Shown here: positions 1 through 13,878 of the stretch, piece after piece | How positions within the stretch are numbered: the stretch's first letter is position 1 | Layout of the letters: each line of letters opens with the position of its first letter | Assembly: GCA_050261115.1 (NCBI GenBank) | Contig: JBLNCY010000049.1 | Location: forward strand, 1 to 13,878 | Length of the DNA: 13,878 bases | Direction: 5' to 3' | Source of the DNA: Methanocella sp. | GTDB lineage: Archaea > Thermoproteota > Bathyarchaeia > Bathyarchaeales > Bathycorpusculaceae | The notes under the pieces: model-generated | Told to the model about the DNA's origin: nothing | Databases searched by the model: none | The model's input: the letters and a program-made list of their open reading frames with translations, nothing else | Position numbers and translations under genes: made by a program

Positions 1-95
1 ATTCTTCCTGGGATGTTTACTTCTGCTAGTTCACGGGATAGGCTGGTAAGGCTTAAATCGCCTTTAATCTCTATTTGTGCTTGGACTGATACCAT
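1..95 (-). CDS. N-terminus of a putative transposase (partial; 3' end outside window)
   Basis: ATG at 95 gives MVSVQAQIEIKGDLSLTSLSRELAEVNIPGR..., open to the edge. It resembles from memory the N-termini of archaeal ISH6-type transposases. Only 31 codons are visible. Confidence 0.45.
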   Translation of the reverse strand, partial: MVSVQAQIEIKGDLSLTSLSRELAEVNIPGR

Positions 96-182
96 GGGTT
101 CACTCTTCTGTTTCCTTGGCGGGTTACATAGGAGTGGACCAATCGGTCCAATTAAAATTCTAGCCGATTAGCAGACGGCACC
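1..182 (-). mobile_element. Probable terminal part of an insertion sequence (ISH6-like DDE family), running off the window edge
   Basis: On the minus strand the viral ORF reads ...KFKIL and then switches at 182 to GGTGCCGTCTGCTAATCGGCTAG. A 5'-GGT end is what I recall for ISH6-family ISs. A new ORF starts 87 nt inside (ATG at 95). The second end is not in the window, so neither TIR nor TSD can be confirmed. Confidence 0.55.
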
Positions 183-358
183 AAAATCTTGAACTTTTGC
201 GTTTCATCAATGCCCAAGCCGAAGGCTTCAGCTACGACAAGGCTTCTAGGTGTTGGCTTAGTGTGGGTTTCATAGCTGATGTTAAACGTAAACTTACCTT
301 CCGTCCGGTCGTAGATACGACGGAATTGCCTTATGCGAAAGTCTCTTTGTCTTCTCAT
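152..358 (-). pseudogene. Truncated 5' fragment of a viral gene, probably an ABC-type ATPase (often GNAT-fused) of archaeal tailed viruses, interrupted at about 182
   Basis: ATG at 358 with an AGGTGA RBS overlapping the terminase stop, so it is coupled to the late operon. The sequence FNISYET..TPRSLVVAEAFGLGID..QKFKIL resembles the leader that, from memory, precedes the Walker A in such ATPases. The P-loop is absent and the last residues (VPSANRLEF) come from the putative IS. Confidence 0.55.
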
Positions 359-365
359 TCCTTAG

Positions 366-2843
366 TCACCTTGGAATAACCGCTAGGAAAGGTTCTGGTT
401 CCATCTGCACGGTAGCAAACATCGCTAGCGCAATACTCCAAAAGACATCATCGTGAGTGCCATTGGGGTGTGAGTAGCCTATAGCGCCATCCTTGCGCAG
501 TTCATAGCGTTCAACGTTTAGTTCGCTACAAATATCCCCCCGATATGGTCGCTCCCAGTTGAGCAGTGGATAGTAGAACTGCTTGTTCATCATGCGCTGC
601 TTTAGCAGGCTGGCCATCTCGCTTTTACGGGGCACGCTAAAGTTCACGCCTTCAGCGTTCTCTATGCCAGCGTTCTCCATGTCAGCTATGATGCTTGGGC
701 CTTCCCTTGTGAAGTCAACCCTGATTTTTTGGAATCCGCCCCAACGGTCCTGCAGCGCCTTAAGATAACCGAGAACATGAGCGTAGAGTGTGGGCTGCTG
801 GAAAATCTTCAAATGCCTAAGAAACAGCTTGTCATTTAGGCGCTCAACGACTGAAAGCACACAATAGTCTCTGGTTTGTGCCAGGTCAAGTCCAACAAAG
901 AATTCTCCCTCACAGCTCGCATTAGGATTAAACTCTTCGAGGTCTTCACCGCAATTCTTCTCCGTGCCCACACAGGCAACAATAAGACTTTGAGCTAGCC
1001 AAACATCTTCGTCTTCAGCCCATTCAGCCTCCATTTCCCGCCGCCAACGTGCAGGATCATCCCCGAACTGCCGCTTTATCTTCTCAATAATTGCGGGCTT
1101 TAGTGGACCGTCAGGTTCGAGTGCCTGCTGCCAACTGATGTGCGTTCTGCCAAAGTCGCTGTAGTCTTTGTGGTTGCACATCTTCCAAAACAGGCTATCG
1201 GTACTCCATGGCGTAGATGTGGCGATTAGTCTGCCGTTGGTTGTGCCTAAAGTGAACAAGATAGCATCATAGAGGTCTTCATCGTTAGCGGTGAAGTTGC
1301 ATTCTTCCCACCAGATAACATGGAAAGCTGGACCACGAATCGTATCAGGATTATTCGGGAAAGCCTCAATCACGCTACCATTGGGCAAGCTGACTCTGGT
1401 TTTTTGAATTCCCCGCTCGCAGCCAAGGTATTTACGGGCAAAGCCGCCGATGCGCCTAACGTTGAGTTTGGTTTGACGCCAGCTTGGACCAACAATAGCA
1501 ATGTAGCTGTTAGGATGCTCGATAGCGTACTTGAGGACTAAGCCAGAAACGATAAAGCTCTTGCCCGTTTGCCTAACTGGGATGAACGTGTAGAAGGCCA
1601 AGTAGTCGTTTAGGTAGTAGCCCGCTTCAATCATCACCTGTTCAGCTTTAAGGGAAGAAATAACGGCTAGCAAATCCAAAGGTTCACCATAAGCCACTGT
1701 TGCGGCGGCTTCTCGAACAGGATACAGCGTCACCGTTTCGCCTTTGCTTTTTAGAATCTTGGTGAACTGGGTTACTGGCTCCTCGTAGTGTAGGAAAAGT
1801 TCGGCTAGCCAGCAAACCGTGACTATGGCCTGCTTATTCTCAACAAAACTGTAGCCTGTGTGTTTGGCGCCCCAATACATGAACTCCTCTGCATGTTTGC
1901 CGATGACTTCTACGCTTAGCCTAAGGCTTGGCTTGTCGTGGTTGCTACGGATTTTCCAAAGAATCCCGCTTGTGACGGCGTCATAGTAGTCACAGGCTGA
2001 AAAGCGGCTAACGACGTCTATGTAGCCAGCCCAACATACTGCAGGGTCATAGGCGGGATATTTTGCGCTTGCCCTAATGTTGTTTAAGGTGTTGTAGACT
2101 TTTTGGCAGCTAACGCTCCAGCCCTCAACCGCATACAATCCTAGCAGGGCGTAGGCAAATGGGTCGTCGTAGACCTCGTTTTCGGTTAAGCCGACTCTGT
2201 GCCATTTGCCATCTGCAGGGTCATAGTTTAGCCAAAGGTTCTCAAAGCCAGTTCTAAGAAAGCCTATTGCCTTGCTTATGATGCTGTTGTAGATTGCAAA
2301 GTTTAGGCTGTCGTGTTTCTCAGATAGTAGCTTTAAACCGATTAAGCCATAGAGACATTCAACGTCCAGTTGCAGAAGCCAAGCGTCCCCAATCGTCACT
2401 GCCCTTGTGAAGCCGCCGTAGGCCTGCTGGTCCTGCATGGTTTTAAGGAAAGTTCCGCCTGCTATCTTTGCTGCGTCCAAATAGCTTGAATTGCTGGTAA
2501 GTTCATAGGCGCTCAGAAGTGAGGGTATGGCTCTGCAGGCGTCTACACTATAATAGTAGGTGCTTTCTTCTGCGCTTTTGAAGCCGCCATAAGCCTTCTT
2601 TGCTGGGTCGGTGCATTGTTGTGTTAGAACCCAATCGGCTAAACTCACGGTTTTGGCGTAGATTTCGGCTTTTCTGTCCTTAAATTGTGGGGCAGAGTAG
2701 GCTTCACAGAGAAAGTCAATAGCAAAGCTAGCCGCTAAAACGCCTCTGCCATACGCTGGGTCTGGTGTGCTCGGTGGAATAACATAAACATAAGGCGCAT
2801 AGTCCATGACGAATTGGTAATAGGATTCAGGAACGGTTCCCAT
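366..2843 (-). CDS. terL: Fusion protein: alpha/alpha-toroid domain (aa 1-~353), truncated head-closure-like domain (aa ~354-424), terminase large subunit ATPase and nuclease (aa ~424-825)
   Basis: GGAGG RBS before ATG 2843. The C-terminal half has Walker A RQTGKS (R424), Walker B-like VIWWEE (1302-1319), coupling motif ATSTP, and RNase H-fold acidic motifs FVGLDLA, RVDFT and HDDVFWSIALA. The N-terminal half is helical and aromatic-rich, with two QW/prenyltransferase-like repeats (DWVLTQQ...YGGF, TFLKTMQ...YGGF) and AYELTSNSSYLDAA, typical of (alpha/alpha)6 barrels. Confidence 0.85.
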   Translation of the reverse strand: MGTVPESYYQFVMDYAPYVYVIPPSTPDPAYGRGVLAASFAIDFLCEAYSAPQFKDRKAEIYAKTVSLADWVLTQQCTDPAKKAYGGFKSAEESTYYYSVDACRAIPSLLSAYELTSNSSYLDAAKIAGGTFLKTMQDQQAYGGFTRAVTIGDAWLLQLDVECLYGLIGLKLLSEKHDSLNFAIYNSIISKAIGFLRTGFENLWLNYDPADGKWHRVGLTENEVYDDPFAYALLGLYAVEGWSVSCQKVYNTLNNIRASAKYPAYDPAVCWAGYIDVVSRFSACDYYDAVTSGILWKIRSNHDKPSLRLSVEVIGKHAEEFMYWGAKHTGYSFVENKQAIVTVCWLAELFLHYEEPVTQFTKILKSKGETVTLYPVREAAATVAYGEPLDLLAVISSLKAEQVMIEAGYYLNDYLAFYTFIPVRQTGKSFIVSGLVLKYAIEHPNSYIAIVGPSWRQTKLNVRRIGGFARKYLGCERGIQKTRVSLPNGSVIEAFPNNPDTIRGPAFHVIWWEECNFTANDEDLYDAILFTLGTTNGRLIATSTPWSTDSLFWKMCNHKDYSDFGRTHISWQQALEPDGPLKPAIIEKIKRQFGDDPARWRREMEAEWAEDEDVWLAQSLIVACVGTEKNCGEDLEEFNPNASCEGEFFVGLDLAQTRDYCVLSVVERLNDKLFLRHLKIFQQPTLYAHVLGYLKALQDRWGGFQKIRVDFTREGPSIIADMENAGIENAEGVNFSVPRKSEMASLLKQRMMNKQFYYPLLNWERPYRGDICSELNVERYELRKDGAIGYSHPNGTHDDVFWSIALAMFATVQMEPEPFLAVIPR

Positions 2844-2845
2844 GG

Positions 2846-3196
2846 CTAGACGCCTCCCACATATGGCTCTTTGAGGCTGGCAAGAATCCGCTCAAATTCC
2901 GTCTGCAAAACCGTCAAGCTGGGCAAAGCTGATGTTGAACTACTAAGGTCTCCGACACTAAAGTTCAAGCCAACTGCTGAGCCACCCGTCAAATAGCAGA
3001 CCGCATAAATTGCTGCCAAAAGTGTGATGGCTTCTTTTTGGGCGTCGGTGCAGTTTTGGTAGTCGATATCAGCGGAGAGTTCAAGCTCTAAAGCGACCTG
3101 TGCACGCTTAATCATCTTTAGAACCTTAGCGTCAGAAATATCCGAATCGCTAATGTTTAGGGTATCTCTGACGTCTTCCATTGATACGCTACCCAT
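2846..3196 (-). CDS. Putative head-tail adaptor/connector (HK97 gp6/SPP1 gp15-like)
   Basis: 116 aa. Opens with the pattern SMEDVRDTLNI...D..V..MIKRA, followed by helices and a short beta-hairpin (NFSVGDLS). Located after the portal gene. Confidence 0.65.
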   Translation of the reverse strand: MGSVSMEDVRDTLNISDSDISDAKVLKMIKRAQVALELELSADIDYQNCTDAQKEAITLLAAIYAVCYLTGGSAVGLNFSVGDLSSSTSALPSLTVLQTEFERILASLKEPYVGGV

Positions 3197-3399
3197 CTTC
3201 TATGCAGCTCCTGTGCTTCTTGGGGCTTGCCGCCCATCAGTTCTTTGATGCCTGCAATGATTCCGCCCACCATTGAACTGCCAAGAATGCCTAGCTCGAC
3301 GTTTCCAACTGGAAAGCCAAGCCCCATCCAAGTAGCCAATGGCGGCAGAACGAAAGCGGCAAACATCAAAAGCGCCTGCTGCTTGTCTGACAACTTCAT
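3157..3399 (-). CDS. Small two-TM membrane protein, holin-like
   Basis: GGAGG RBS and ATGA overlap with the portal stop. Two hydrophobic segments (ALLMFAAFVLPPLATWMGLGF, LGILGSSMVGGIIAGI) and a charged tail. The holin function is inferred only. Confidence 0.6.
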   Translation of the reverse strand: MKLSDKQQALLMFAAFVLPPLATWMGLGFPVGNVELGILGSSMVGGIIAGIKELMGGKPQEAQELHRRWVAYQWKTSEIP

Positions 3400-4646
3400 T
3401 CTTGTTTTACCTCCTTACCTTGAACACCAGCCTGCTCTGGTGTATTTTCGGGTTTGGCATCCCACAGTTCCCAGCCAAACTTGACTGCGTTCTTTCGGAA
3501 CTCTTCAGCCCTAACCAGCCCAAGCTCAGCGGCTTTGATGAGGTCGGCGGGCACTAACTCTGGTGTTTCAGGACTGCCAAAATTGAGCCTAACCTTCGCC
3601 TTAGCAGCGTCTAAACCCGCCTGTGTCACCTTGACTGCAAAGATTTCTTTCTCCACTTGACGCTTGATGTACCGCTGGACGGGTTTTATGAGCATGTCTT
3701 GCAAATCCAGTGCTGCCCTTGCCGATGCTTCGGTGAAGCCTGGAGTGCTAAACAACCGTGGCAGAGGCGTCTCGCATCCAAGATAAAATTGGTTGACCAT
3801 GTGGTCGATGTAGTACTCAAAACGTGCTCTTGGGTCGATAGAAACTGGATAGACGCCTACATTTTTAGCACCACTAAAAAGCCACTGCCCCTCTTCTGGG
3901 CGGTTCTTAATCGCAGACTCATACTTTTTGATAGTGTCCTCTTTTTGGCCTTCAAGCTGAACAACGACGTCGGGTCCAGCGTACTTTTTGAAGATGTTTG
4001 GCAGAATCTTTTCTATTTTAGCCTTCATCCAAGCATAGGATGGGCGCTTATCTGTGTCAATTGTCAACGTATGCAAAAGAACCTGCAGCAAACCGACGCC
4101 GAACCCAGATGGGACATCACCGTTTAGGCGCCAGTGAATGACGGCTTCGGGCTTTAACTCGTTTCCAGCATTGCCCGCATAGCTGCCCCTAAGCTGGTAA
4201 CCTGTAACCTTGTAGGGTATTTTCAAGTCAGGAATAGAACTCAAGCCTATCCGTTGAACCGAATCAATCGGCATACGCAACATGTCGGCTAGCCGTTCCG
4301 GGGTGAGTTTGAGCCAGAAATCGTTACCGCAAGCAATCAGAGGCTTAGCCATATCGTTTAGAAGCCCATCAAGATTGACGTCTTCACAGAACCTATCTAC
4401 AGCCGCTTTAGCTTCTGAGGCTTTATCATATTTCTCGTCAACTGTGGTGTAGAAGCCCATGCCAACCGTGGAAGCTGCCAATAGGTCTACGCTGCTTTTG
4501 CAGGTTGGGTCTCGGTCGTAAAGTTTTATGACATCGGCTAGTGGGATGCATGAGGTGTCAAAGAACACCCTATCCTTTGGGGAAGCCACGCCCGAAGCAG
4601 GCGCATAAGATAGCACTTCACGGATTTTCTTTAAGACGAAACTCAT
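3396..4646 (-). CDS. Portal protein
   Basis: 416 aa from ATG 4646 (GAGGT RBS); the ORF-track TTG at 4682 is probably too far upstream. Portal-like motifs include LYDRDPTCKSSVD, LIACGNDFW, LKPEAVIHWRLN...FGVGLL, LGCETP, and ASA..A...QDMLIKPVQRYIKRQVEKEIF. Confidence 0.85.
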   Translation of the reverse strand: MSFVLKKIREVLSYAPASGVASPKDRVFFDTSCIPLADVIKLYDRDPTCKSSVDLLAASTVGMGFYTTVDEKYDKASEAKAAVDRFCEDVNLDGLLNDMAKPLIACGNDFWLKLTPERLADMLRMPIDSVQRIGLSSIPDLKIPYKVTGYQLRGSYAGNAGNELKPEAVIHWRLNGDVPSGFGVGLLQVLLHTLTIDTDKRPSYAWMKAKIEKILPNIFKKYAGPDVVVQLEGQKEDTIKKYESAIKNRPEEGQWLFSGAKNVGVYPVSIDPRARFEYYIDHMVNQFYLGCETPLPRLFSTPGFTEASARAALDLQDMLIKPVQRYIKRQVEKEIFAVKVTQAGLDAAKAKVRLNFGSPETPELVPADLIKAAELGLVRAEEFRKNAVKFGWELWDAKPENTPEQAGVQGKEVKQE

Positions 4647-4680
4647 TGCGGGTTTAACCTCAAACGATTTTTTGGTTCCC

Positions 4681-4697
4681 AAAAAATGGGGAGAAAG
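4681..4697 (-). terminator. Putative oligo-T terminator/attenuator after the major capsid gene
   Basis: Minus strand CTTTCTCCCCATTTTTT, 20-35 nt past the MCP stop. Confidence 0.4.
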
Positions 4698-4716
4698 ATT
4701 GTTGGTTTAGAGCAGC

Positions 4717-5670
4717 CTAAGTCATGGTCTGCTTAACGTTGGTCATTTTGGCAATAGCTTTAGAGCGGAGGATGCCAGCGCCAAACCTTGTGGTTCCACG
4801 GACACCGTACTTGCCGTTTTTAACGTCTTCCCAGTCTTCCACAGTAACGTCTCGACGTAGAAGCATAACAGAAGCCACTCGTGTGTCAATGGCATACATC
4901 GTTCCGTTAGGTACCAGAGTGCTTGACTGCACCGTCATACCAAGCACACTACCGATAGTGCCCTGTTCAATGTCAGTCTCACTACTTGGCAGGTACACCG
5001 ATTTCACGAACTTGTCATCGTTAAGCAGTTGATGTAGTTGCATTTCGTTGACAGCAAGAATATTGGGACGCCAGTTTTCTCTGCGGACAGCTTCATGCAA
5101 GCTCAGAAGTGAAGCCCAGCTAGCCACAGCACCACCGCCAGCCAGTTCTGCGCCAGTTGCCAAGTCGCCTGCTTGAACTGCAGCATACAATGCGATGATA
5201 ACTTCCGTTTCCCTTTGTCCCAGCGCTCTACCTACATTGTCGACTGCTTTGTTCATTACATTCCATGTGGCGTCTTCGAGGTATTCACGGGTCCACTCAT
5301 CAGCGGATTCTGCCAGTTGATTGGTATAGATATCAACTGTGGAGGCTTTCTTTGCGCTCAGTCTTGTGATGGCGCCTTCTGCATAGCGGTAGCCAACCGC
5401 GCCTGCGTCGAGCGGGAAACGCTCCATCGCCTCAGAAGTTGGCATAACGGTGATAATATTTCTGCCAATCAGCTCAGGCCATGCATCGTCAACCATGGTG
5501 TCATGCATTCTGCCAAGAGCGCCCGCCATATCACTAAAGAAGCCCTCTTTGACTCCTGTCTGTGCATAGCGTTTTAGGAAAGGGTGCTCGGTTTTCTGCT
5601 TGAGTTTCTCGTAGAGTTCATGCTGGTCATTGGGCTTAGCCATCAGTGCTTCGAAAAGTCGCGGTTTCAA
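4717..5670 (-). CDS. Major capsid protein, HK97 fold
   Basis: About 317 aa (TTG 5670 after GGAGAAGTGA; alternative GTG 5679). E-loop YAEGA, spine helix NVMNKAVDNVGRALGQRETEVII, A-domain RPNILAVNEMQLHQLL, IGSVLGMTVQSSTLVPNGT, and terminal RFGAGILRSKAI. Confidence 0.9.
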   Translation of the reverse strand: MKPRLFEALMAKPNDQHELYEKLKQKTEHPFLKRYAQTGVKEGFFSDMAGALGRMHDTMVDDAWPELIGRNIITVMPTSEAMERFPLDAGAVGYRYAEGAITRLSAKKASTVDIYTNQLAESADEWTREYLEDATWNVMNKAVDNVGRALGQRETEVIIALYAAVQAGDLATGAELAGGGAVASWASLLSLHEAVRRENWRPNILAVNEMQLHQLLNDDKFVKSVYLPSSETDIEQGTIGSVLGMTVQSSTLVPNGTMYAIDTRVASVMLLRRDVTVEDWEDVKNGKYGVRGTTRFGAGILRSKAIAKMTNVKQTMT

Positions 5671-5675
5671 AGTTA

Positions 5676-6104
5676 TCACTTCTCCACTTCGATAAAGATC
5701 AGGTCGTTGTCTGCGGTTGCAGATTGGAGAGCGGTTCCGAGTTTGCGGTTGTAGTATACGGTGTAGGTTGCTGCTCCGCTTTCATCGACGGGTTGGTCTA
5801 CTAGCTGCGTTACCTTGTTACCGCCTGCACTACATACGCCATAACCTCGGGTTATGGGGCCATTAGCTGTGACTTTGACTCTGCCCTTTTTGAGCACAGA
5901 ACACATATCGCCAATTGCCACTGTTTTTGTTGCTACACCGATGGCCATGTCTCCGCCTGGGCTAGGCGAGACCTTGTCATCAGAGCTCAGGTAGACGGGT
6001 GAGCCTTTGGTGATTGCGGCTTCAGCTTCAAAGGATTCTATGATAGCGTCGGCGTCGTCGGTTTCTCCTATAGCCATCCAGCTTTTGCCAGTTTTATCAG
6101 CCAT
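5676..6104 (-). CDS. Capsid cement/decoration protein (DUF2190-like beta-rich)
   Basis: FEAEAAITKGSPVYL...AIGVA...G..V....GRVKVTANGPITRG..V...LGTALQSATADNDLIFI pattern, immediately upstream of the MCP. Confidence 0.75.
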   Translation of the reverse strand: MADKTGKSWMAIGETDDADAIIESFEAEAAITKGSPVYLSSDDKVSPSPGGDMAIGVATKTVAIGDMCSVLKKGRVKVTANGPITRGYGVCSAGGNKVTQLVDQPVDESGAATYTVYYNRKLGTALQSATADNDLIFIEVEK

Positions 6105-6185
6105 AAAGTGTCAAATCAGTTTTTGTTGAATTTCCCAAAGTTCGTCCTTTGGTACTCTTCCTCATAGAAATGAGCATAAACACAG

Positions 6186-6914
6186 CTAGCTGCCTCCAGC
6201 TTTCTGCTCTAGCCGTTGGACTACTCTTCGTACTTCTTGGCACATTCTTTGCGGTCCAAGGCTCCAGCTTCTCTGAACCATATTTGAAGGCAAAACTGAT
6301 TCGATAAGTTTGGCAGCTTCGGAGACCGCTATCATTTTTGGCGGACTCTTTAGCAAGCCGCCACCCGGGACTTGTTTGCGTAGGTCCTCGATGGTTTTTT
6401 CTGCCTCAGTCAGTTTGTCCTCTGTTTGAGTTAACTTTTCCATAACTTGCACGTTAGTCTCGGGAATACCCGGCACCGCCACAAGACTTAACTCGGCATT
6501 ATGCAAGCCATGGGGAACCTTGCCATCCACAAGATCAACCGCTTCATAGTCGGCTCCTACGCTGACGTGCTGGATTAAGCCATTGCGGATTTTTTCAGCG
6601 GTTGGCTCATCGTAGATTTCTGCTTCATACCAAAGGTTGTGTCCATCCCAATCGGACTTTGTAACCTTGCCAATGGCGTTAGGAACAGCAACATGCTCGA
6701 TATAGACTGGCGCATTAGTCAGCTTGCTTGTGAAGGCTTGCAATTCTTCAGAAGTGTAGATGTTGTGGTTTCGGCTCATGCCACTGCACATAGCTACCCC
6801 CCGAATACACAAGGGCTTACCAGACAAAGCCTCAAGAAGAGTAAAAGGCAAGAGGGAAGCTACATGTTCCCTAACACGCTTACAATCCTTACAGCCAACG
6901 CCATCCTGAGACAT
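6186..6914 (-). CDS. Prohead maturation protease (HK97/assemblin-type) with C-terminal coiled-coil scaffold-like segment
   Basis: IRGVAM..G.SRN..IY, PVYIEH (catalytic His), IGKV, LWYEAEI, HVSVG (catalytic Ser), AELSLVAVPG, then the heptad-like LTQTEDKLTEAEKTIEDLRKQ. Confidence 0.85.
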   Translation of the reverse strand: MSQDGVGCKDCKRVREHVASLLPFTLLEALSGKPLCIRGVAMCSGMSRNHNIYTSEELQAFTSKLTNAPVYIEHVAVPNAIGKVTKSDWDGHNLWYEAEIYDEPTAEKIRNGLIQHVSVGADYEAVDLVDGKVPHGLHNAELSLVAVPGIPETNVQVMEKLTQTEDKLTEAEKTIEDLRKQVPGGGLLKSPPKMIAVSEAAKLIESVLPSNMVQRSWSLGPQRMCQEVRRVVQRLEQKAGGS

Positions 6915-7060
6915 AGCTAAATCGCAAAAACAAGCCGCAACAACAGATTAATGGCTTGAGAGCCTAAACACGATAATATCGCAAAAATGACAACAGAACA
7001 AAGGCTAAAGCAATGAAGCAGCTGGGGCTCGGGAACGAATTTTTCGTTTGGTTTATGCTA
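6915..7060 (-). promoter_or_regulatory. Likely control region of the late (capsid) operon
   Basis: Non-coding region upstream of the protease. Contains the palindrome AACGAA-TTT-TTCGTT (7034-7048) and a duplicated bipartite motif: ATCGCAAAAA (6921-6930, 6978-6987) and ACAACAGA (6940-6947, 6990-6997). Confidence 0.4.
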
Positions 7061-7178
7061 GTCGTCAGCAACAAATGATAGGTTTATGTAAAAAAATCAT
7101 AAATGGAGTATAGGACAACCAATTTTCTATCTGGAAAATTGCTTTTGTCGAACGCTGTAAGTTATCCCCCGAAATATT

Positions 7179-7194
7179 GAAAAATAATATAAAG
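7179..7194 (+). promoter_or_regulatory. Putative archaeal BRE/TATA promoter for the cargo operon
   Basis: GAAAAATAATATAAAG about 40 nt upstream of ATG 7234, with an RBS-like GAGGGAG just before the start. Confidence 0.4.
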
Positions 7195-7233
7195 CAACAT
7201 TGTCCTAAAGTTGGTAACGAGGGAGCATTGAAA

Positions 7234-9984
7234 ATGGTCACACGTTCGAGAACCAAATTTCTAGTAACAGTTATTATCGCTCTGTTGATAATTTCAAGTG
7301 CATATACGTTTGTTATTCCAAGCGTATATGCCGCAGAGTTAACGACGGAACAGAAAGGGTTGAGTGCTTTAACCAATGTAGTAGGTCTTGATTTAACAAA
7401 ATACGATGTTAAAACTCAAGGGAGCAATCAGTCCTTGCCATTTCTTGATGGAATTCTGCAGGAGAATGTTTTGTTCAACCTGACGTCTGAGAATAGTAAA
7501 TTGAGCATATTTTACACTTATACAAACGGTAATCTGCAAGGTCTATATGTGCTTGAAAACGAGGGTACACCTGTCTTAACTAAATCAACAGTGAGTATTA
7601 ATGCTGTTGAAAGTGCCAAAGACTTCTTAACAAACTACCAAACGTATTCCAATAAACAAGTTTTCGGAGAACTACAATCGACCCTTACCAATGTGGATGC
7701 TAGCAAAAACATTACAAAGACTATTGGCAACACAGTGCTCGAACAAACCGTTTACAATGACAGCCAAACGTATTTCAAATGGTACTACACCGCAAACGGT
7801 GCCATAGCCCCCTATACCAAGACTATTGCTATGGGTTTCAAGAATGGGTTCTTAACTTCATTTATCGATAATTGGGAACTCTATCCTGTTGGTAGCACTA
7901 ACGTCAATCTCTCTAAGGATCAAGCCGTGGCACTAGCACTCGATATTGCGAAAAATCACAATTGGACTATGCAGCTTGACCAAGATACCCTTGATCCTAT
8001 TAATTTTAATAAGGATAAAAGCGTCTCATGGATAACACTATCTTTTGATAATTCGATAGATGCAGATACTACTCGTAGTAAAAATTCTCTAGAGCTCTAT
8101 CCAGTTTGGAAAGTTGGGATTGTTCTCAATAAAGTCTACGGCGAACTATACGGATTAGAGGTAGACATTTGGGCAGACACCAAAGAACTAAGAAGTGTAG
8201 ATGAACAGTACTCGCAATTAGCCGCCCAGTGGCTACAGAATGTTACTGTGAGCGCCGATGCAAGCACAAAAAACAATCAAACACTCACTAATGGAATGCA
8301 AGTAAACTTGGCATTGATCGCATCAATAGCAGTCGCCATGACAGTTACAGGCCTTTGTACGGTTGCAATACTTAGGAAAAAGAGTCTAAAAATTAGCCAC
8401 CAACTAAAATCTCGCTCCCCAAGAGTATTGGGGCTCATTCTATGTTTTCTGACATTGTTGGTCATTTTCTTGCCTCTTGTGGAGAGTGCTAGTGCAAGTA
8501 ACGCTGGTATAATTTGGGGCTCAAGAAGCTCTGGTGCATCAAACAGTCCAGTTAGTTATATTTGGCGTAAAACAGATGGTGAAATTAACAGGCAATCCTA
8601 TGTTACAAGTTATATTGCAAGCAATTTCTTCACTGCTGCTAACGGTTATACTGGCTATAGTAATCATGGGGTAAATAAAGATGTCATTCTTTATCAGGCA
8701 GGCTACTTACGCGACAATTTTGACTATATGGCGGTCCTTGATTGGAATCACGGAGTCGGCGGCCGCCCACCACAGGCACCCAACGAAGACCATTACATGT
8801 TTGAAGACGATTGTGGTACAAAAATAGGTTCACCAAGCAACTTCTATACAGATCTTAGCCATGGAGTATACGATATGGAAATACATAACGTTATTCCACC
8901 AGCCAAAGCCCACTTTGTCTTTATCGATGCATGCCAATCAGCAAATCTTGACCGATTGGGTGAGGGATACCTCCCAAGCGGTAATGCAGTTGGGTTACCC
9001 TTTGCTTTTACCCACCGTATAGTCACTTACCTTCCAACAGGTACTCAGATGAGCGCAGATGGATACAGCTTTCCAGACGCTTTTCCACAATGCTACATAG
9101 GTTTCCCAATGGGTTCAGCCGCTTTAGACCAACATGTAGACTACAATCAAGATACAGAGAACTATGGAACGGGACCGTACTGGTATAACTGGATTCTTTT
9201 CTTCTACTACTTTGCGTTGGATTATGACATATCGGTGAAAGATGCTCTGGATTTGGCTTCATACCAAACATGGCAGTGCAATAATTTTGCGTCAAGTCCA
9301 TTAAGAGGTGCTGGATTTACAGCTGTATGGCCAATGTATGGATATAATTCTACATCACAGCGCTGGGAATGGATGGATACTGTAGGGTCTCAAAGTACTC
9401 TAGCGGTATATGGTAACGCTAACATTCATTTGAGAAACTTCTCCCCATCTGACATGCTAATTGGGCCAGATTTAAGCGGTCCAATACAAGGCGACCCGTA
9501 CCAATCATACACTTTTAGTGCGAAAGCAATTGATTCACATGGCCACCGAATCAAATATCTGTTTGACTGGGGGGATGGCACACAATCATGGACAGATGAT
9601 TATACTGCTAATGGCGTAATTGCCTCAAAATCTCACACATGGAATTCGGGAGGTACATATAGCGTTAAAGTTAAGGCACAATGCGAAAACGGTCAATGGA
9701 GCGGTTGGTCTAATACAATCAACATTGCAATAGGCACTTATTATTGGCTTACGGTAGATGCATACGATCAATATGGGCAATTCTTCACTGGTGTGCGTAT
9801 AGATGGCAATTACTATGGAACGCCTGTGTCAGTGTTGGTAAGTCCAGGTTCCCACAGTGTCTGGGCAGAGCCCTATCCAGGCTACTCATACCTAACAGGA
9901 TTCAGTGATGGCCTTGGCAACGGAGACTACAGACAAATCTACTCTGACACTCAAATAACCGCATACTATCAATCCTTCTGGTAA
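7234..9984 (+). CDS. Large exported/membrane protein: signal peptide, PepSY/YcdB-like ectodomain, TM helix, internal signal peptide, clan CD (gingipain/caspase-fold) protease-like domain, PKD domain, C-terminal beta domain
   Basis: ATG 7234 gives a clear signal peptide (MVTRSRTKFLVTVIIALLIISSAYTFVIPSVYA). Hydrophobic helices at about 8308-8373 and 8425-8481. Motifs AVLDWNHG (His codon 8749), HFVFIDACQS (Cys codon 8932) and LAVYGN. PKD signature YLFDWGDG...SHTWNSGGTYSVKV (about 9463-9732). Confidence 0.8.
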   Translation: MVTRSRTKFLVTVIIALLIISSAYTFVIPSVYAAELTTEQKGLSALTNVVGLDLTKYDVKTQGSNQSLPFLDGILQENVLFNLTSENSKLSIFYTYTNGNLQGLYVLENEGTPVLTKSTVSINAVESAKDFLTNYQTYSNKQVFGELQSTLTNVDASKNITKTIGNTVLEQTVYNDSQTYFKWYYTANGAIAPYTKTIAMGFKNGFLTSFIDNWELYPVGSTNVNLSKDQAVALALDIAKNHNWTMQLDQDTLDPINFNKDKSVSWITLSFDNSIDADTTRSKNSLELYPVWKVGIVLNKVYGELYGLEVDIWADTKELRSVDEQYSQLAAQWLQNVTVSADASTKNNQTLTNGMQVNLALIASIAVAMTVTGLCTVAILRKKSLKISHQLKSRSPRVLGLILCFLTLLVIFLPLVESASASNAGIIWGSRSSGASNSPVSYIWRKTDGEINRQSYVTSYIASNFFTAANGYTGYSNHGVNKDVILYQAGYLRDNFDYMAVLDWNHGVGGRPPQAPNEDHYMFEDDCGTKIGSPSNFYTDLSHGVYDMEIHNVIPPAKAHFVFIDACQSANLDRLGEGYLPSGNAVGLPFAFTHRIVTYLPTGTQMSADGYSFPDAFPQCYIGFPMGSAALDQHVDYNQDTENYGTGPYWYNWILFFYYFALDYDISVKDALDLASYQTWQCNNFASSPLRGAGFTAVWPMYGYNSTSQRWEWMDTVGSQSTLAVYGNANIHLRNFSPSDMLIGPDLSGPIQGDPYQSYTFSAKAIDSHGHRIKYLFDWGDGTQSWTDDYTANGVIASKSHTWNSGGTYSVKVKAQCENGQWSGWSNTINIAIGTYYWLTVDAYDQYGQFFTGVRIDGNYYGTPVSVLVSPGSHSVWAEPYPGYSYLTGFSDGLGNGDYRQIYSDTQITAYYQSFW

Positions 9985-10022
9985 GAACTAAATAAGATGG
10001 ACACGATAAGTGAGCTGAAAAA

Positions 10023-11438
10023 ATGAAGAAACAACTACTCTCACTTTTTATTCTAATTACCATCTTAACCACAACTGTACCTACTCTTGCCCAAACCACC
10101 AATACAGTAGAGGATTCTTGGAATACCAAGGCGTCAATGCAGCAGGCAAGGAGCGGCTTAGGCGTTATTGCAGTGGACAACAAAATCTACGCTATAGGCG
10201 GTGCTTTATCTGGTTTCAAGATTGTTGCGGGAACTAACGAGCAATATGATCCTGCTACAGATACTTGGGTTTACAAAGCTTCAATGCCTACGCCAAGAGC
10301 CTATTTCGCTATAGCAGCATATCAAAATAAAATATACTGCTTTGGAGGGGTGACCGGCGAGAGACTTGTCGATGAAAAGAGCGGATTCTACACTGCCATA
10401 TATTCGAATGCATTTGAGGTTTACGATACAGTCACAGATACTTGGACAACCAAGCCACCTATGCCTAAAGGCGGCGGAATGCATATTTCCGCCCAAGAAG
10501 TTAACGGAAAAATATACGTTATTAATCCACCTGACATTTACATTTACGATCTATCTAATGATAATTGGACAGAAAGAAAAAACCTGTCTCTGCCAGAATA
10601 CTCATCAGTTATCGGTAACAAAATCGTCGTAGCTGGAACCCATGATATTGGCTATTCACCCAGTAGCCCATACTTTGGCGGCATTCAATCGGTAGAGCAG
10701 GTCATAGTCTATGACCCTGAGGGTAACAATTTAACTCAAGGTGCTGATGCCTCAATAGGTGTAGACGCAGGAGCAATCGGTGCAACTGTTGGCATTAATG
10801 CACCTCAACGGGTTTATATAATGGGCGTGAAATCCGAAAAATCCCCCCCTATACCAGTCAATCTAGTCTATGATCTAAAAACTAATAATTGGACGACAGC
10901 CACAGCCATGCCATCAGTAAGAATCAATTTCGGCATTGCAATCGTAAATGATACTTTGTATGTTATAGGCGGGACGTTGTTGCCTTATTCTTATGACGAG
11001 ACAGGAAAATACGTTGAATATGGCACCTCAAGCGTTACAAATACCAATGAGCAATACATACCCATTGGATTCGGAACTATTTTACCAAGCCCAACTGCAA
11101 ATCCATCAGCGCCTTCCGATTCTGTGGACCAGTTTATTTCGACGGAATTCATTGCGATAATTGCAGCCATAGCGATAATTCTGTTGATAGTGACGCTCTT
11201 CATCTATAAAATGAAGAAAAACAATCAATTAGCCAAAATGCGTATGAACGGCTATCGGGTCGATATATTACAATTGATAAATAAGTGTAATCTTATGCTA
11301 AATTACCTTGGCCGCTGGGATTTGAGCCCATTGACAAACTCTAAATCAGCCTTTGCTCGCTCGATTTTCTTTAAAGCGTTCTTTCTTGAACGGGTTACGT
11401 TTGGCGTCTCCATCCTTAACTGTTTAGCTATTCGGTAG
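10023..11438 (+). CDS. Secreted, C-terminally anchored Kelch-repeat beta-propeller protein
   Basis: Signal peptide, then repeats such as W.TKASM...RSGLGV..VDNKIYAIGG, ASMPTPRAYFAIAAYQNKIYCFGG and AMPSVRINFGIAIVNDTLYVIGG. A Pro/Ser linker, the TM helix FIAIIAAIAIILLIVTLFIY and KMKK follow. The tail beyond about 11230 looks like read-through. Confidence 0.9.
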   Translation: MKKQLLSLFILITILTTTVPTLAQTTNTVEDSWNTKASMQQARSGLGVIAVDNKIYAIGGALSGFKIVAGTNEQYDPATDTWVYKASMPTPRAYFAIAAYQNKIYCFGGVTGERLVDEKSGFYTAIYSNAFEVYDTVTDTWTTKPPMPKGGGMHISAQEVNGKIYVINPPDIYIYDLSNDNWTERKNLSLPEYSSVIGNKIVVAGTHDIGYSPSSPYFGGIQSVEQVIVYDPEGNNLTQGADASIGVDAGAIGATVGINAPQRVYIMGVKSEKSPPIPVNLVYDLKTNNWTTATAMPSVRINFGIAIVNDTLYVIGGTLLPYSYDETGKYVEYGTSSVTNTNEQYIPIGFGTILPSPTANPSAPSDSVDQFISTEFIAIIAAIAIILLIVTLFIYKMKKNNQLAKMRMNGYRVDILQLINKCNLMLNYLGRWDLSPLTNSKSAFARSIFFKAFFLERVTFGVSILNCLAIR

Positions 11439-11497
11439 TCACTCAAACCCTCCTTATGCAACCGTAAAATCTGCCGTTCACGCTCAGTCAACGCCAA
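11303..11497 (-). CDS. Small LuxR/sigma70-region-4-type HTH protein, candidate late-gene regulator
   Basis: LTERERQILRLHKEGLSDYRIAKQLRMETPNVTRSRKNALKKI is a textbook HTH pattern. TTG start with a GGAG RBS inside the upstream gene. Confidence 0.8.
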   Translation of the reverse strand: MALTERERQILRLHKEGLSDYRIAKQLRMETPNVTRSRKNALKKIERAKADLEFVNGLKSQRPR

Positions 11498-11499
11498 AG

Positions 11500-12024
11500 T
11501 TAGGTCTCCTCTTCAGAAACACTATGTACTGTCACGCCTTCGACTAGCAAATCCTTCTTCGATGCTTTGTAGGCGTCTACGCCGAAGCTGGTCATAGCCC
11601 AGCACCAACCCCGCCGCTCAACAACCGCCGAATCCAACTCTTTAGCCAGACGCTTATTCATGCGAACAATCCGTCGGGTCACTTGATGGCGGACAATCTT
11701 GAATTCAGCCAGCTTGGCGGCTATGTCTTTAGGCAGTAGCCCGGGAGCGCCGGCTTCAAACAGCAGCTGAAGGATTGCCTTGTCGATCTCATCTTCGCAA
11801 GCTGCCTCTTCGATAAGCGACTTCTCAAAGTGCAGTGAGTCTTTTAGGCCAGCAAAGATAACGCGGAGTAGCAGTTTGATTTCGGCTACGTCTCGGTCGA
11901 GTTTCTTGTCCTTGGCAAGTAGGTACTTGAGTTTTCCAACCTTGTCAGCTTGGCTACGCTTCTTTTTCTCTGATTTTTGGGCTGAAAACGCCGTGTTTTG
12001 AACAGGTTCATCGCTTGTTTCCAT
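11500..12024 (-). CDS. Winged-helix DNA-binding protein with N-terminal basic/coiled-coil region
   Basis: ATG 12024 preceded by GGAGTG (ORF-track start 12060). C-terminal DEIDKAILQLLFEAG..GLLPKDIAAKL...RHQVTRRIVRMNK...W.MTSFG fits a wHTH fold. Confidence 0.7.
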   Translation of the reverse strand: METSDEPVQNTAFSAQKSEKKKRSQADKVGKLKYLLAKDKKLDRDVAEIKLLLRVIFAGLKDSLHFEKSLIEEAACEDEIDKAILQLLFEAGAPGLLPKDIAAKLAEFKIVRHQVTRRIVRMNKRLAKELDSAVVERRGWCWAMTSFGVDAYKASKKDLLVEGVTVHSVSEEET

Positions 12025-12119
12025 GTCAAAGTGCACACTCCAAGGTTTTCGTTCCATCAAAACAGGGTGAAATTGATACTTGGTAATCAGGACTAACTAA
12101 CCGTAGAAAATTGACTTGT

Positions 12120-12143
12120 AAAAAGCATGGACTTTTCCCATGC
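12120..12143 (-). terminator. Hairpin plus U-tract terminator-like element after the 325-aa wHTH gene
   Basis: Minus strand GCATGG-GAAAAGT-CCATGC-TTTTT. Confidence 0.5.
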
Positions 12144-12197
12144 CCTCGGCATACTGCTAAGATAGCTTTTGAACAGGTTTTCACTGCCAAAATCGGG

Positions 12198-13175
12198 CTA
12201 ACGAACATAGCTTTTGCCTCCATCCCCAAACTTAACCGCTTCTTTACCTGCATCATTGCCTTTTGCTAAACCCAAAGCTTCAGAGAGCAATCCTACAAGA
12301 CGTTCGTTAAGAGTCACCAGCCCACTGACCGTTTGAATAAGAACATTAACTTTTTCAGCTAACTCTACAAAAAGCTCTGGACTGCGAACAGCAGCAACCG
12401 CCAATTCTTTTCGGTTGTACTCAAAATGCCTTTGACGGTCCGGTGGGCTGTTATCTAAACCGCCCATGGCGCCGTCCTTTAGGTGAACCTTGAAGGTGCC
12501 AACGCCGTCCAATTCTTTGGCTTCTTCAGTGAAAACCTCCCAAACGGGAGCATGCAACGGCACACCTTCCTCGCTAAGAACCATGCCAAACCGAACCATC
12601 AACTCCAACCGCGCACGGCCAACAATCTGACCAGCAGTCACCAAAAGCGCATCCGCATCAAAATCCCGCAATTTACCAGGATGAATAATGATGCTCCGAC
12701 TAGTCTTAACTACGCGAACGTTTCCCAGCTTAAAGCCCCACTTAACCCAGTTCCGAGGCTCCCCAAGCTTTCTCCAATCGATAGGATGCTGCTTATCCTC
12801 TTCTTTGAGAATCTCAAACTTAACCGCATGATCCTCCAACACATGCACGCAACCAAAGTCTCCCTCACCCGTAGTGAAGTTTTTTGAACGCTCAAGGATT
12901 TTCTTTCCAAGAGGCGTTAACTCGTAGTATTTGACTATGCCATCGGCTAGCAGGCGCAGGCAGTCGGTCTTTAGGGCATGGTTTTTCCAGTGGGAAACTA
13001 GGCTTTTGGAGCAGCCTACGAGTTTGGCGGCGTCGCTTGCTGTGCAGTCAGGCGTACCTAAAACTCGCAGTATCCGTAAGCCGCGCTGTGAGAACCCTAA
13101 GAGTTCAATTTTGCCCTTGAACTGTTGAACTGGTTTACGGGAAACGGGTTCAACGGTTCGGTCAGTGTCAACCAA
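12198..13175 (-). CDS. N-terminal wHTH protein with uncharacterised beta-rich C-terminal domain and coiled coil; candidate replication initiator or regulator
   Basis: TTG 13175 after GAGGTGA (alternative GTG 13184). HTH TASDAAKLVGCSKSLVSHW and wing YELTPLGKKIL. The replication role is inference. Confidence 0.65.
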   Translation of the reverse strand: MVDTDRTVEPVSRKPVQQFKGKIELLGFSQRGLRILRVLGTPDCTASDAAKLVGCSKSLVSHWKNHALKTDCLRLLADGIVKYYELTPLGKKILERSKNFTTGEGDFGCVHVLEDHAVKFEILKEEDKQHPIDWRKLGEPRNWVKWGFKLGNVRVVKTSRSIIIHPGKLRDFDADALLVTAGQIVGRARLELMVRFGMVLSEEGVPLHAPVWEVFTEEAKELDGVGTFKVHLKDGAMGGLDNSPPDRQRHFEYNRKELAVAAVRSPELFVELAEKVNVLIQTVSGLVTLNERLVGLLSEALGLAKGNDAGKEAVKFGDGGKSYVR

Positions 13176-13180
13176 AAAAA

Positions 13181-13564
13181 TCACCTCAGCCTAGGGAGAA
13201 CGCTCTCCCTGATGTCTTGTCTTATGCCCTCGATTAAGTAGTCAAGTTCGGCTGGGCTTAGCAGTTGTATGGCGAAGTATTCGGCTATTGCTGCGTTTAG
13301 GGATTCGCGGTTTTCAGCGGTGTCTTTTATGCGAAAGAAAGCAGAGATACTATTAGGGAGGACTGGTGCCACCATGACTTCGAACTCTGCGTTTTTGGGT
13401 GTTCCTGGCGAAAAATACCAGTGCTCCATATACTGCCCAAAGCCGCAGTTAATGCTAAAGACAATCCATCGCTCATCAGTAAGCCAGTCAACCGCATCCA
13501 CCCTGCTAAAACCCAGCTCTATCTTACGCTTTTGAAAAGCGTCGGTTGGCTCGTATTTTCTCAA
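13181..13564 (-). CDS. Hypothetical protein (127 aa)
   Basis: GGAGG RBS, TTG start overlapping the upstream TGA, and stop within the next gene's RBS. No motif recognised. Confidence 0.65.
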   Translation of the reverse strand: MRKYEPTDAFQKRKIELGFSRVDAVDWLTDERWIVFSINCGFGQYMEHWYFSPGTPKNAEFEVMVAPVLPNSISAFFRIKDTAENRESLNAAIAEYFAIQLLSPAELDYLIEGIRQDIRESVLPRLR

Positions 13565-13695
13565 ACGTGAGCCTCCCTAGTATGCCCTCTGGGATGGAAC
13601 TTAGAGCAGGCATCGCTTGAAGCTATCCGGTTGATTGATTTCTTGCCCTTCAAGGTAGGCTCGGAGCAGCGTCCACACCAAAAAGTGCAATCCAT
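13561..13695 (-). CDS. Small Cys-rich putative zinc-binding protein; start uncertain
   Basis: The frame contains CMDCTFWCGRC...DACSKF, a common viral CxxC..C..C pattern, and its stop is coupled to the next start. The only ATG (13695) falls inside the CxxC, and the ORF-track start lies within the tRNA. Confidence 0.4.
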   Translation of the reverse strand: MDCTFWCGRCSEPTLKGKKSINRIASSDACSKFHPRGHTREAHV

Positions 13696-13755
13696 GCACT
13701 GAGGGACTTTAGGCGTTGGTTTTTTAGCGCCTAACGTAGGACCTTCTGTATGCTC

Positions 13756-13774
13756 AAAAAAAGAAAGGGGAGAA
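13756..13774 (-). terminator. Oligo-T terminator downstream of the tRNA
   Basis: Minus strand TTCTCCCCTTTCTTTTTTT starting about 22 nt after the CCA end. Confidence 0.55.
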
Positions 13775-13796
13775 CAGGATAAATTCGTGACAGATA

Positions 13797-13874
13797 TGGC
13801 GGGCCCGGTGGGATTTGAACCCACGATCTCCGGCTCCGAAGGCCGACACCTTAATCCGTGCTAGGCTACGACCC
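13797..13874 (-). tRNA. tRNA-Arg (anticodon TCG), CCA encoded; probable attachment site
   Basis: Minus strand: GGGTCG TA GCCT AGCACGGATTA AGGT G TCGGC CTTCGGA GCCGG AGATC GTGGG TTCAAAT CCCAC CGGGCCC G CCA. D, anticodon and T arms all pair; anticodon at 13837-13839. The 5' acceptor strand is one base short. Confidence 0.93.
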
Positions 13875-13878
13875 ACGT

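Follow-up and report, generated by a model that had tools for sequence, protein, structure and literature searches.

The stretch of DNA analyzed here, called the window throughout, is the entire 13,878-bp contig (C49) of a Bathyarchaeia metagenome-assembled genome (MAG) that comprises 66 contigs with a completeness of 94.85%, and it is most likely a defective head-tailed provirus of the Caudoviricetes type lying within that archaeal genome. Our subject is one of its genes, an open reading frame (ORF; product P0001) in which a truncated neck protein, made of an (alpha/alpha)6 barrel followed by a head-closure domain, is fused in frame to a large terminase subunit (TerL) without its N-terminus. 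The initial annotation of this DNA had proposed a single uninterrupted frame of 825 amino acids (aa) for the whole chimera; the frame is indeed open over 825 codons, but its strand had to be corrected to minus, the plus-strand reading being riddled with stops. The abutment of the closure-domain sequence LAFYTFIPV on the terminase motif RQTGKS was confirmed, the Arg at the join being residue 424 (Table 1), and the E-values behind this description lie far outside what chance would give.

Table 1. Features of the window, with the basis for each name
Feature	Position	Strand	Basis or remark
End of a multi-copy insertion sequence (IS)	1-187	-	Transposase gene of the Mutator family, beginning near 132 and continuing past the contig end
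5' stump of ABC-ATPase/GNAT gene	182-358	-	Cut by the IS; tblastn places aa 15-59 of the 479-aa protein of locus L016 on 316-182
Chimeric ORF, 825 aa (P0001)	366-2843	-	Truncated barrel/head-closure protein fused in frame to N-terminally truncated TerL
TerL from Walker A to C-terminus, aa 424-825 and stop	366-1574	-	First ~79 aa of the parent absent
Junction codon R424 (AGG)	1572-1574	-	Left side closure gene (PVR), right side TerL (RQTGKS)
Truncated head-closure (Hc1-like) domain, aa 353-423	1575-1787	-	Last 39 residues (three strands) gone
(alpha/alpha)6-barrel domain, aa 1-352	1788-2843	-	Glycoside-hydrolase/epimerase-like fold, from the structure model of the intact paralogue P0122
Neck-position protein, 116 aa	2846-3196	-	'Adaptor' from size and position only
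Portal-sized protein, 428 aa	3396-4682	-	'Portal' from size and position only
ORF, 80 aa	Within head module (2846-6914)	-	
HK97-type major capsid protein (MCP), 320 aa	4717-5679	-	Pfam/PHROG, synteny
Cement protein, 142 aa	5676-6104	-	Pfam/PHROG, synteny
Protease candidate, 242 aa	6186-6914	-	Weak Pfam/PHROG matches, synteny
Low-GC block	6980-11325	Opposite	GC 0.37-0.43 against ~0.49
Upstream part of element, ORFs of 186, 76, 328 and 127 aa	11500-13875	-	Homologues upstream of the head module in relatives
tRNA-Arg(TCG)	13797-13875	-	Contig end

The chimeric gene and its junction

A protein search against 5.8 billion cluster representatives gave 1022 matches among 8000 scored candidates, and the best 120, which are those listed, were all between 456 and 504 aa long, each covering 48-57% of the query. 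These listed matches form two separate families, one of 463-aa 'hypothetical proteins' that match aa 1-428 at 72-86% identity and the other of ~481-aa TerLs that match aa 424-825, the closest of them (P0002) at 94% identity. For aa 1-428 a range of 80-90% identity to the 463-aa family was also obtained. The matched proteins are labeled in their sources as Bathyarchaeota, Bathyarchaeia or Thermoproteota, and it is from these labels that the host is named here. In the alignments the 463-aa proteins run ...YTFLPVR/VHDKIRRQGEDYE... and continue for 39 residues beyond the break (marked by the slash), and the TerLs run ...QFNAVRWPR/QTGKS..., with the break preceded by about 79 residues of their own; the chimera is the left side of the first family joined to the right side of the second. 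An apparent likeness of the closure C-terminal domain to the TerL N-terminus in MAFFT and BLAST extensions was rejected as an alignment artefact, the direct comparison giving a best E-value of 1.5.

The reality of the junction was examined in public sequencing runs using 251 sampled 31-mers of the gene. Of the 22 runs listed, 18, belonging to nine studies and labeled as anaerobic digester, compost, sludge, biofilm or bioreactor, hold at least 98% of these words. The contigs assembled run by run (k = 31) for four runs of four studies were compared with positions 1-3400 of the window at a likeness of at least 97%, and in each run one contig bridges the junction codon with no difference, no joint and no loose end (158-3400 of the window in runs X1 and X2, 685-3400 in X3 and 1467-3400 in X5). 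Contigs may mask rare variants, and a minority undeleted allele could escape this comparison.

The exact chimeric protein is also present in a collection of 15 billion proteins, where its 90% cluster (15 of 67 members listed) holds a second 825-aa member, P0251, encoded on two contigs up to 321 kb long and identical to the window protein at 819 of 825 residues. In addition, the 47-base word that spans the junction was found in one IMG/VR contig of 12,898 bp (L115), whose fused gene encodes P0251 exactly, and had no match in 185,579 species-representative genomes, among which the window's own genome is possibly not included. The search for the same junction in independent genomes therefore led to a near-identical lineage and to no divergent relative. 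The cluster of P0002 at 90% identity, for its part, merges TerLs and 463-aa neck proteins under a TerL representative, evidently bridged by the chimera.

With these data the misassembly that the initial annotation had raised as the alternative, taken here as an error of assembly or binning that put together genes standing apart in one element or in two, becomes very improbable. It could draw on a fragmented MAG that contains at least two related elements, on the shortness of the window, a contig with an IS at one end and a tRNA gene at the other, and on the fragmentation of the X5 contigs within the TerL part. It is contradicted by the four per-run assemblies, coming from four different studies, by the separate L115 contig with the same 47-mer, and by the same fusion in the JGI protein P0251. 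Moreover, the parent sites in relatives share no 30-mer, so that no repeat between them is long enough for a mis-join in a k-mer graph to be expected.

Comparison of L115 with the window showed 97.6% identity over 178-6980 and 99.7% over 11325-13878. The fused genes differ at 40 of 2478 nucleotides (nt), 39 of which lie in the last ~320 nt (window 369-690), where the synonymous divergence (dS) is 0.34; the protease gene has 81 differences, and the portal-sized and MCP genes have none. Because the differences are clustered in this way they point to recombination (gene-conversion) tracts imported from sibling elements rather than to point mutations, and outside the tracts the two fused alleles differ at just 1 of ~2160 nt. 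The ratio of nonsynonymous to synonymous divergence (dN/dS) between the fused alleles was considered as a test of selection after the deletion and rejected as uninformative, with 39 of the 40 differences in one imported tract. L115 keeps an intact 478-aa ABC-ATPase/GNAT gene after the chimera and has no IS there. Since the two lineages share the scar and differ in IS, cargo and tracts, the deletion must predate the IS insertion, the exchange of cargo and the two conversion tracts.

The interval missing between the two parent genes

Among the 41 genomes from the genus and order that we scanned, 33 gave some match to the chimera, and a match spanning residues 1-825 was found in the window alone. 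Seven closure-TerL pairs on the same strand, 6.3-7.7 kb apart and with the closure gene upstream, occur in five of these genomes (two each in G014 and G005, one each in G040, G026 and G037). The same order, namely closure gene, 6.0-8.9 kb between the ORFs, and then TerL on one strand, was found in 11 of the 12 fetched loci that hold both genes; in the exceptional locus, a metagenomic one (L032), the segment with TerL and the ABC/GNAT gene is inverted relative to the neck and tail genes.

In locus L016 the interval between closure gene and TerL comprises eight genes. They encode, in order, a 339-aa protein without match, a 287-aa tail tube protein (PF18906, 5.6e-14), a 154-aa protein without match, a 111-aa HK97-gp10-like/Neck1 protein (PF04883; phrog_5, 4.2e-17), a 182-aa protein, a 536-aa tail protein (YQBQ-like/Prophage_tail, 1.9e-7; phrog_400, phrog_1887), a 137-aa protein and, directly before TerL, a 176-aa helix-turn-helix (HTH) protein (sub-threshold GcrA/HTH_38; phrog_323, 1.3e-11) that, from its position and HTH, is a candidate for the small terminase subunit (TerS). 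All eight genes are present in the same order in nine other loci, and seven of the eight in the two most distant loci. None of the eight is found in the fused lineage L115. They are all missing from the window too, as are the C-terminal 39 aa of the closure protein and the N-terminal 79 aa of TerL. From the inter-ORF distances plus these 39 and 79 lost codons, the deletion amounts to ~6.4-6.5 kb relative to the closest relatives. The initial annotation had proposed the removal of the closure-gene end, the tail genes, TerS and the TerL N-terminus in one deletion; the gene order of the relatives supports this model, with the qualification that TerS is a candidate only.

Within the window's own assembly no gene of the interval was found elsewhere, except the 339-aa gene at the very end of contig C27, where a sibling element runs off the contig end at that gene. 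Small fragments of MCP, gp10-like and TerL genes on C51 and C23 look like older remnants. A metagenome scan for DNA of the closest intact TerL (P0002) returned only relatives at no more than 81%. In the intact relatives the tail module measures only ~6 kb (L016:10503-16552), its largest ORFs being those of 536 and 339 aa, with no gene of tape-measure size, which suggests a very short tail.

As to mechanism, a single illegitimate deletion of this size would have joined the two genes at the Arg codon with at most a few bases of microhomology, the breakpoint codons of the relatives permitting at most a few shared bases. Such a deletion would have taken away 39 codons at the end of the closure gene, ~79 at the start of TerL and, between them, the eight genes, which include the tail module and the HTH gene that occupies the TerS position, and it would have ended in frame by chance, as one in three such events do, to yield the 825-aa chimeric ORF. 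We regard it as fairly recent. The fusion is restricted to two near-identical lineages and absent from every divergent relative examined, be it in the protein search, the 41 genomes, the fetched loci or the species genomes, which agrees with a recent deletion and not with a conserved fusion. That the fused form is instead the ancestral architecture, from which the split forms derive, is extremely improbable: beyond the existence of two fused alleles nothing speaks for it, while each of the 71 TerL ORFs that align to the chimera from residue 424 onward has an N-terminal extension of its own (~80 residues) and all of the 14 full-length closure genes stand separate from TerL. Furthermore, the fused alleles are near-identical except for the two recombination tracts, and conserved sequence missing from the fusion is present in the split forms.

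What the chimera kept, what it lost and its likely fate

In the terminase part, aa 424-621 lie on positions 6-213 of the 215 of Pfam Terminase_6N (PF03237; 47.4 bits against a cut-off of 22), and aa 424-809 match the PHROG family of TerL (phrog_2, 1.6e-30), with direct matches to T4 gp17 chains too. Conservation was read from an alignment of 22 sequences, the intact TerLs in it being 25-79% identical to P0002, and the chimera retains all of the 32 columns that are invariant past the junction. Among the retained residues are R424, G427, K428, E514, S543-T544-P545, D653, D659, D710 and H797-D798-D799, which we take to be, individually, those of Walker A, of Walker B with its catalytic Glu, of the coupling motif and of the acidic nuclease site. 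The ATPase and nuclease motifs after the junction, which had been described as intact, thus appear to be so as far as their sequence tells.

The deleted 79 aa of TerL include in the same alignment the invariant residues F48 and Y60 and the near-invariant P57 and W78. A profile of the alignment matches T4 gp17 (3cpe_A) with an E-value of 7.7e-25 from gp17 residue 108 onward, and the lost segment falls on gp17 108-161, the family pattern '...sYq...fiavrwsRqsGKt' lying on gp17 '...DYQ...MTVCNLSRQLGKT'. This gp17 segment carries DYQ and the strand that leads to SRQLGKT; as it belongs to the solved ATPase domain of T4 gp17, the piece that was lost is not a dispensable tail. The Gln of the gp17 YQ motif contacts adenine and the strand before the P-loop sits inside the central sheet. 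A review of the T4 head (PMC3012670) confirms for gp17 an adenine-binding motif near a mobile loop. In comparison with terminases of the T4 gp17 type (3cpe, 2o0h), the chimera shares the RQxGKS/T Walker A, Walker B including its catalytic Glu, the coupling motif STP and a nuclease half resembling RNase H; unlike them, it begins at Walker A, without the YQ motif and the pre-P-loop strand.

The neck parent can be judged from an intact paralogue (P0122) on contig C27 of the same genome (L019:12031-13422, G000:C27), which is 86% identical to the N-terminal part of the window protein and whose AlphaFold2 (AF2) model, built from a 43-row alignment, has a mean predicted local distance difference test (pLDDT) of 95.4 and a predicted template-modeling score (pTM) of 0.93. 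Residues 1-352 of this model form an (alpha/alpha)6 barrel, so that the enzyme-like fold proposed for the N-terminal part is borne out at the level of a predicted structure. Foldseek against the PDB gave 160 matches at E<=0.001, which include glycoside hydrolases (GH) of family GH88 and glucose and cellobiose 2-epimerases, and the entries 3ren (GH8-like), 8h1l, 3wiw and GH76 structures were matched with E-values of 5e-7 to 5e-5 and target-normalised template-modeling (TM) scores of 0.53-0.66. The likeness to GH8, GH76, GH88 and the cellobiose/glucose 2-epimerases is one of fold, with a sequence identity of just 9-14%. A few relatives carry the precomputed label PF06662 (glucuronyl C5-epimerase C-terminal), and the barrel part of the window protein itself had no Pfam match at E<=0.01.

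Residues 355-463 of the P0122 model form a helix and eight strands. With this model, Foldseek against BFVD returned dozens of viral proteins of 100-155 aa named head-tail joining, connector, closure knob or SPP1-type adaptor (99-135 aligned columns, E-values of 2e-5 to 5e-4, target-normalised TM scores up to 0.73), and judging from the aligned lengths these matches should fall on this C-terminal domain. Stand-alone homologues of ~100-115 aa exist, and in some proteins the barrel and closure domains occur apart; among 17 such homologues, eight matched phrog_939 'head protein' (best 1.3e-8), three phrog_161 'head closure Hc1' and one phrog_8797. The closure domain had no Pfam family match and no significant PDB sequence match, and the ESM Atlas gave leads only (scores <0.9). 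Known head-closure proteins are SPP1 gp16, HK97 gp7 and lambda FII. With Hc1 proteins the 463-aa family has in common a beta domain of ~110 aa and the position of its gene in the neck region; it differs from them in carrying this domain behind a 350-aa (alpha/alpha)6 barrel, and the window copy differs also in ending at residue 423. Placed on the P0122 model, the chimera ends the closure domain after the strand 414-419 and loses strands 428-431, 434-446 and 449-459, in agreement with the view that the closure barrel at aa 354-424 was halted before its last strands. The architecture of barrel plus closure domain is kept at 44-90% identity across related proviruses, in a small family of 125 representatives at 50% identity. 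If the predicted fold is a guide, the 463-aa neck protein may build, around the neck of archaeal virions, a collar that binds or cuts glycans.

For the chimera itself, AF2 gave a mean pLDDT of 57.3 and a pTM of 0.47 from a 46-row alignment of the trimmed parents, with residues 354-590 below 50 and residues 414-423 as coil rather than strand. The proposal that LAFYTFIPV might stand in for the lost pre-P-loop strand hence finds no support in the model, which is a weak test of it. With regard to selection, the TerL part deviates at 3 of 174 conserved columns, with 48 of 129 relatives as bad or worse, and the N-terminal part at 1 of 164, with 61 of 78 relatives as bad or worse; duplicate loci of the window and of C27/G014 and TerL ORFs below 60% identity or 450 aa were left out of these counts. 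There is no excess of changes at conserved columns, a pattern that fits youth as well as selection, and because the fused alleles are so nearly identical outside the tracts, selection cannot be read from them.

Taking these results together, we consider it probable, with good confidence, that the provirus is in decay and that the chimera in it is a dead packaging gene, the in-frame join being a one-in-three accident. Because the YQ motif and the pre-P-loop strand are gone and the closure domain is short of three strands, the packaging gene is most likely dead. The element should be able to make no tails and is probably unable to package DNA on its own, and the ORF would have stayed open and undegraded through its youth relative to the mutation rate, not through selection. 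Several points weigh against this interpretation. One of the four runs that confirm the junction is possibly the source sample of the MAG itself; by Pfam boundaries the Terminase_6N domain is nearly complete; the failed model of the chimera came from a shallower alignment (46 mixed rows against 43 rows of one protein) and had no intact-TerL control; residues 414-419 are a beta strand when the closure domain is intact, making a substitute strand conceivable; and the open frame with its fully retained TerL columns would also fit selection. The allele has, besides, persisted through the IS insertion, an altered variable region and two recombination tracts, and it occurs widely, over the nine studies, so that it is not brand new.

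Several of these points count in favour of a working chimera, in which LAFYTFIPV replaces the lost strand and ATPase and nuclease both fold. Such a protein could be retained for packaging, or it could serve as a decoy or dominant-negative factor whose binding to portals or DNA hinders sibling or incoming viruses; alternatively a head-only remnant is mobilised by the sibling element in the manner of a satellite. To them can be added the lack of excess damaging substitutions, the intact head module with portal-sized and MCP genes identical in both lineages, and the sibling element with its intact closure gene on C27 of the same genome. We nevertheless hold a working chimera to be unlikely: the invariant Y60 and F48 and the native strand are gone, the closure domain is incomplete, the model is poor precisely around the join, the near-identity of the alleles leaves selection unreadable, no divergent lineage has the fusion, the adjoining gene is disrupted by an IS, and in the assembly no tail genes of the family were found that could act as helper, bar the 339-aa gene at the end of C27. 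Exaptation proper, with a portal-proximal closure fragment tethered to a TerL that retains its nuclease yet escapes regulation by TerS and acts as a dominant-negative or decoy against packaging by sibling or superinfecting viruses of the family, or else a tail-less satellite with the sibling as helper, seems to us decidedly unlikely; if true, it would explain why the open frame outlasted the IS, the cargo swap and the two tracts, and its presence in the digesters and composts of nine studies.

The provirus, its neighbours and its decay

The assignment of the window to a head-tailed provirus is based on its HK97-type MCP (PF25209, 27.1 bits against a cut-off of 27; phrog_267, 7.6e-14), on the terminase and on a weakly matched maturation protease (phrog_7015 at 0.0021, PF04586 at 0.07); a cement protein (PF09956) is present too. 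This head module, lying upstream of the chimera, is intact and syntenic in relatives at 60-93% identity, and its 428-aa 'portal' and 116-aa 'adaptor' had no significant match in Pfam, PHROGs or the PDB. In L115 (region 12080-12898) a tyrosine recombinase gene (PF00589, 4.2e-10) lies just past the tRNA-Arg, on the side away from the structural genes. The low-GC block of the window encodes two proteins, one of 935 aa with a PKD domain and hydrophobic segments and one of 471 aa with Kelch repeats, and at its position L115 has 1.4 kb with a Big_13 Ig-like protein, compared with 4.3 kb in the window; the block, which separates the head module from the regulatory genes, looks like a slot in which cargo for cell-surface proteins can be swapped.

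On the other side of the chimera, the IS end matches contig C46 of the same genome (G000:C46), whose ORF carries PF00872, at 78% in DNA; the IS depth in the per-run contigs is ~10-fold higher and the assembly graph forks at 183-192. The gene interrupted by this IS encodes in L016 (17974-19413) a protein of ~479 aa that combines an ABC-type ATPase with a GNAT acetyltransferase region, and stands directly after TerL in 12 of the 13 loci compared; in the window's own genome (G000:C43) it is found behind a TerL of just 32-34% identity as well. Possibly this protein works with the packaging module as a conserved partner.

Copies of this provirus family occur at various stages of decay in the genus, and one genome of 2.7 Mb has several TerL genes of 60-87% identity. 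The genomes of the genus contain up to 13 matches each (G014, G005), several of them with internal stops, eight in the case of G001:C4:220755-221864. The window resembles cryptic proviruses made by internal deletion in having decayed through a deletion and an IS insertion, the in-frame join at the P-loop being peculiar to it. A passage of PMC11697101 reports a siphovirus-like provirus of 46.8 kb, with terminase, integrase and structural genes, in Bathy-6 MAGs from pulp-mill digesters and calls it common in Bathyarchaeia; as there described, it is alike in being an integrated head-tailed virus in digester Bathyarchaeia, a likeness of host class and habitat. Other head-tailed families are the subject of an excerpt from a survey of viruses of Bathyarchaeia (PMC10848311), in which no terminase-neck fusion is mentioned, no search having been aimed at such fusions.

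What the locus offers is a well-documented case of provirus decay in an uncultured archaeal class, with a deletion whose timing can be placed against that of an IS insertion and of recombination tracts. The chimera, being traceable across public metagenomes, is a useful strain marker and also a warning for annotation, as the merged cluster that it bridges can mislabel neck proteins and hide fused members from searches at the level of representatives. An active chimera, should it prove to be one, would show in a natural experiment whether a terminase ATPase tolerates the replacement of its pre-P-loop strand. More unusual than the fusion is the neck protein of the parent family, with its conserved combination of barrel and closure domain.

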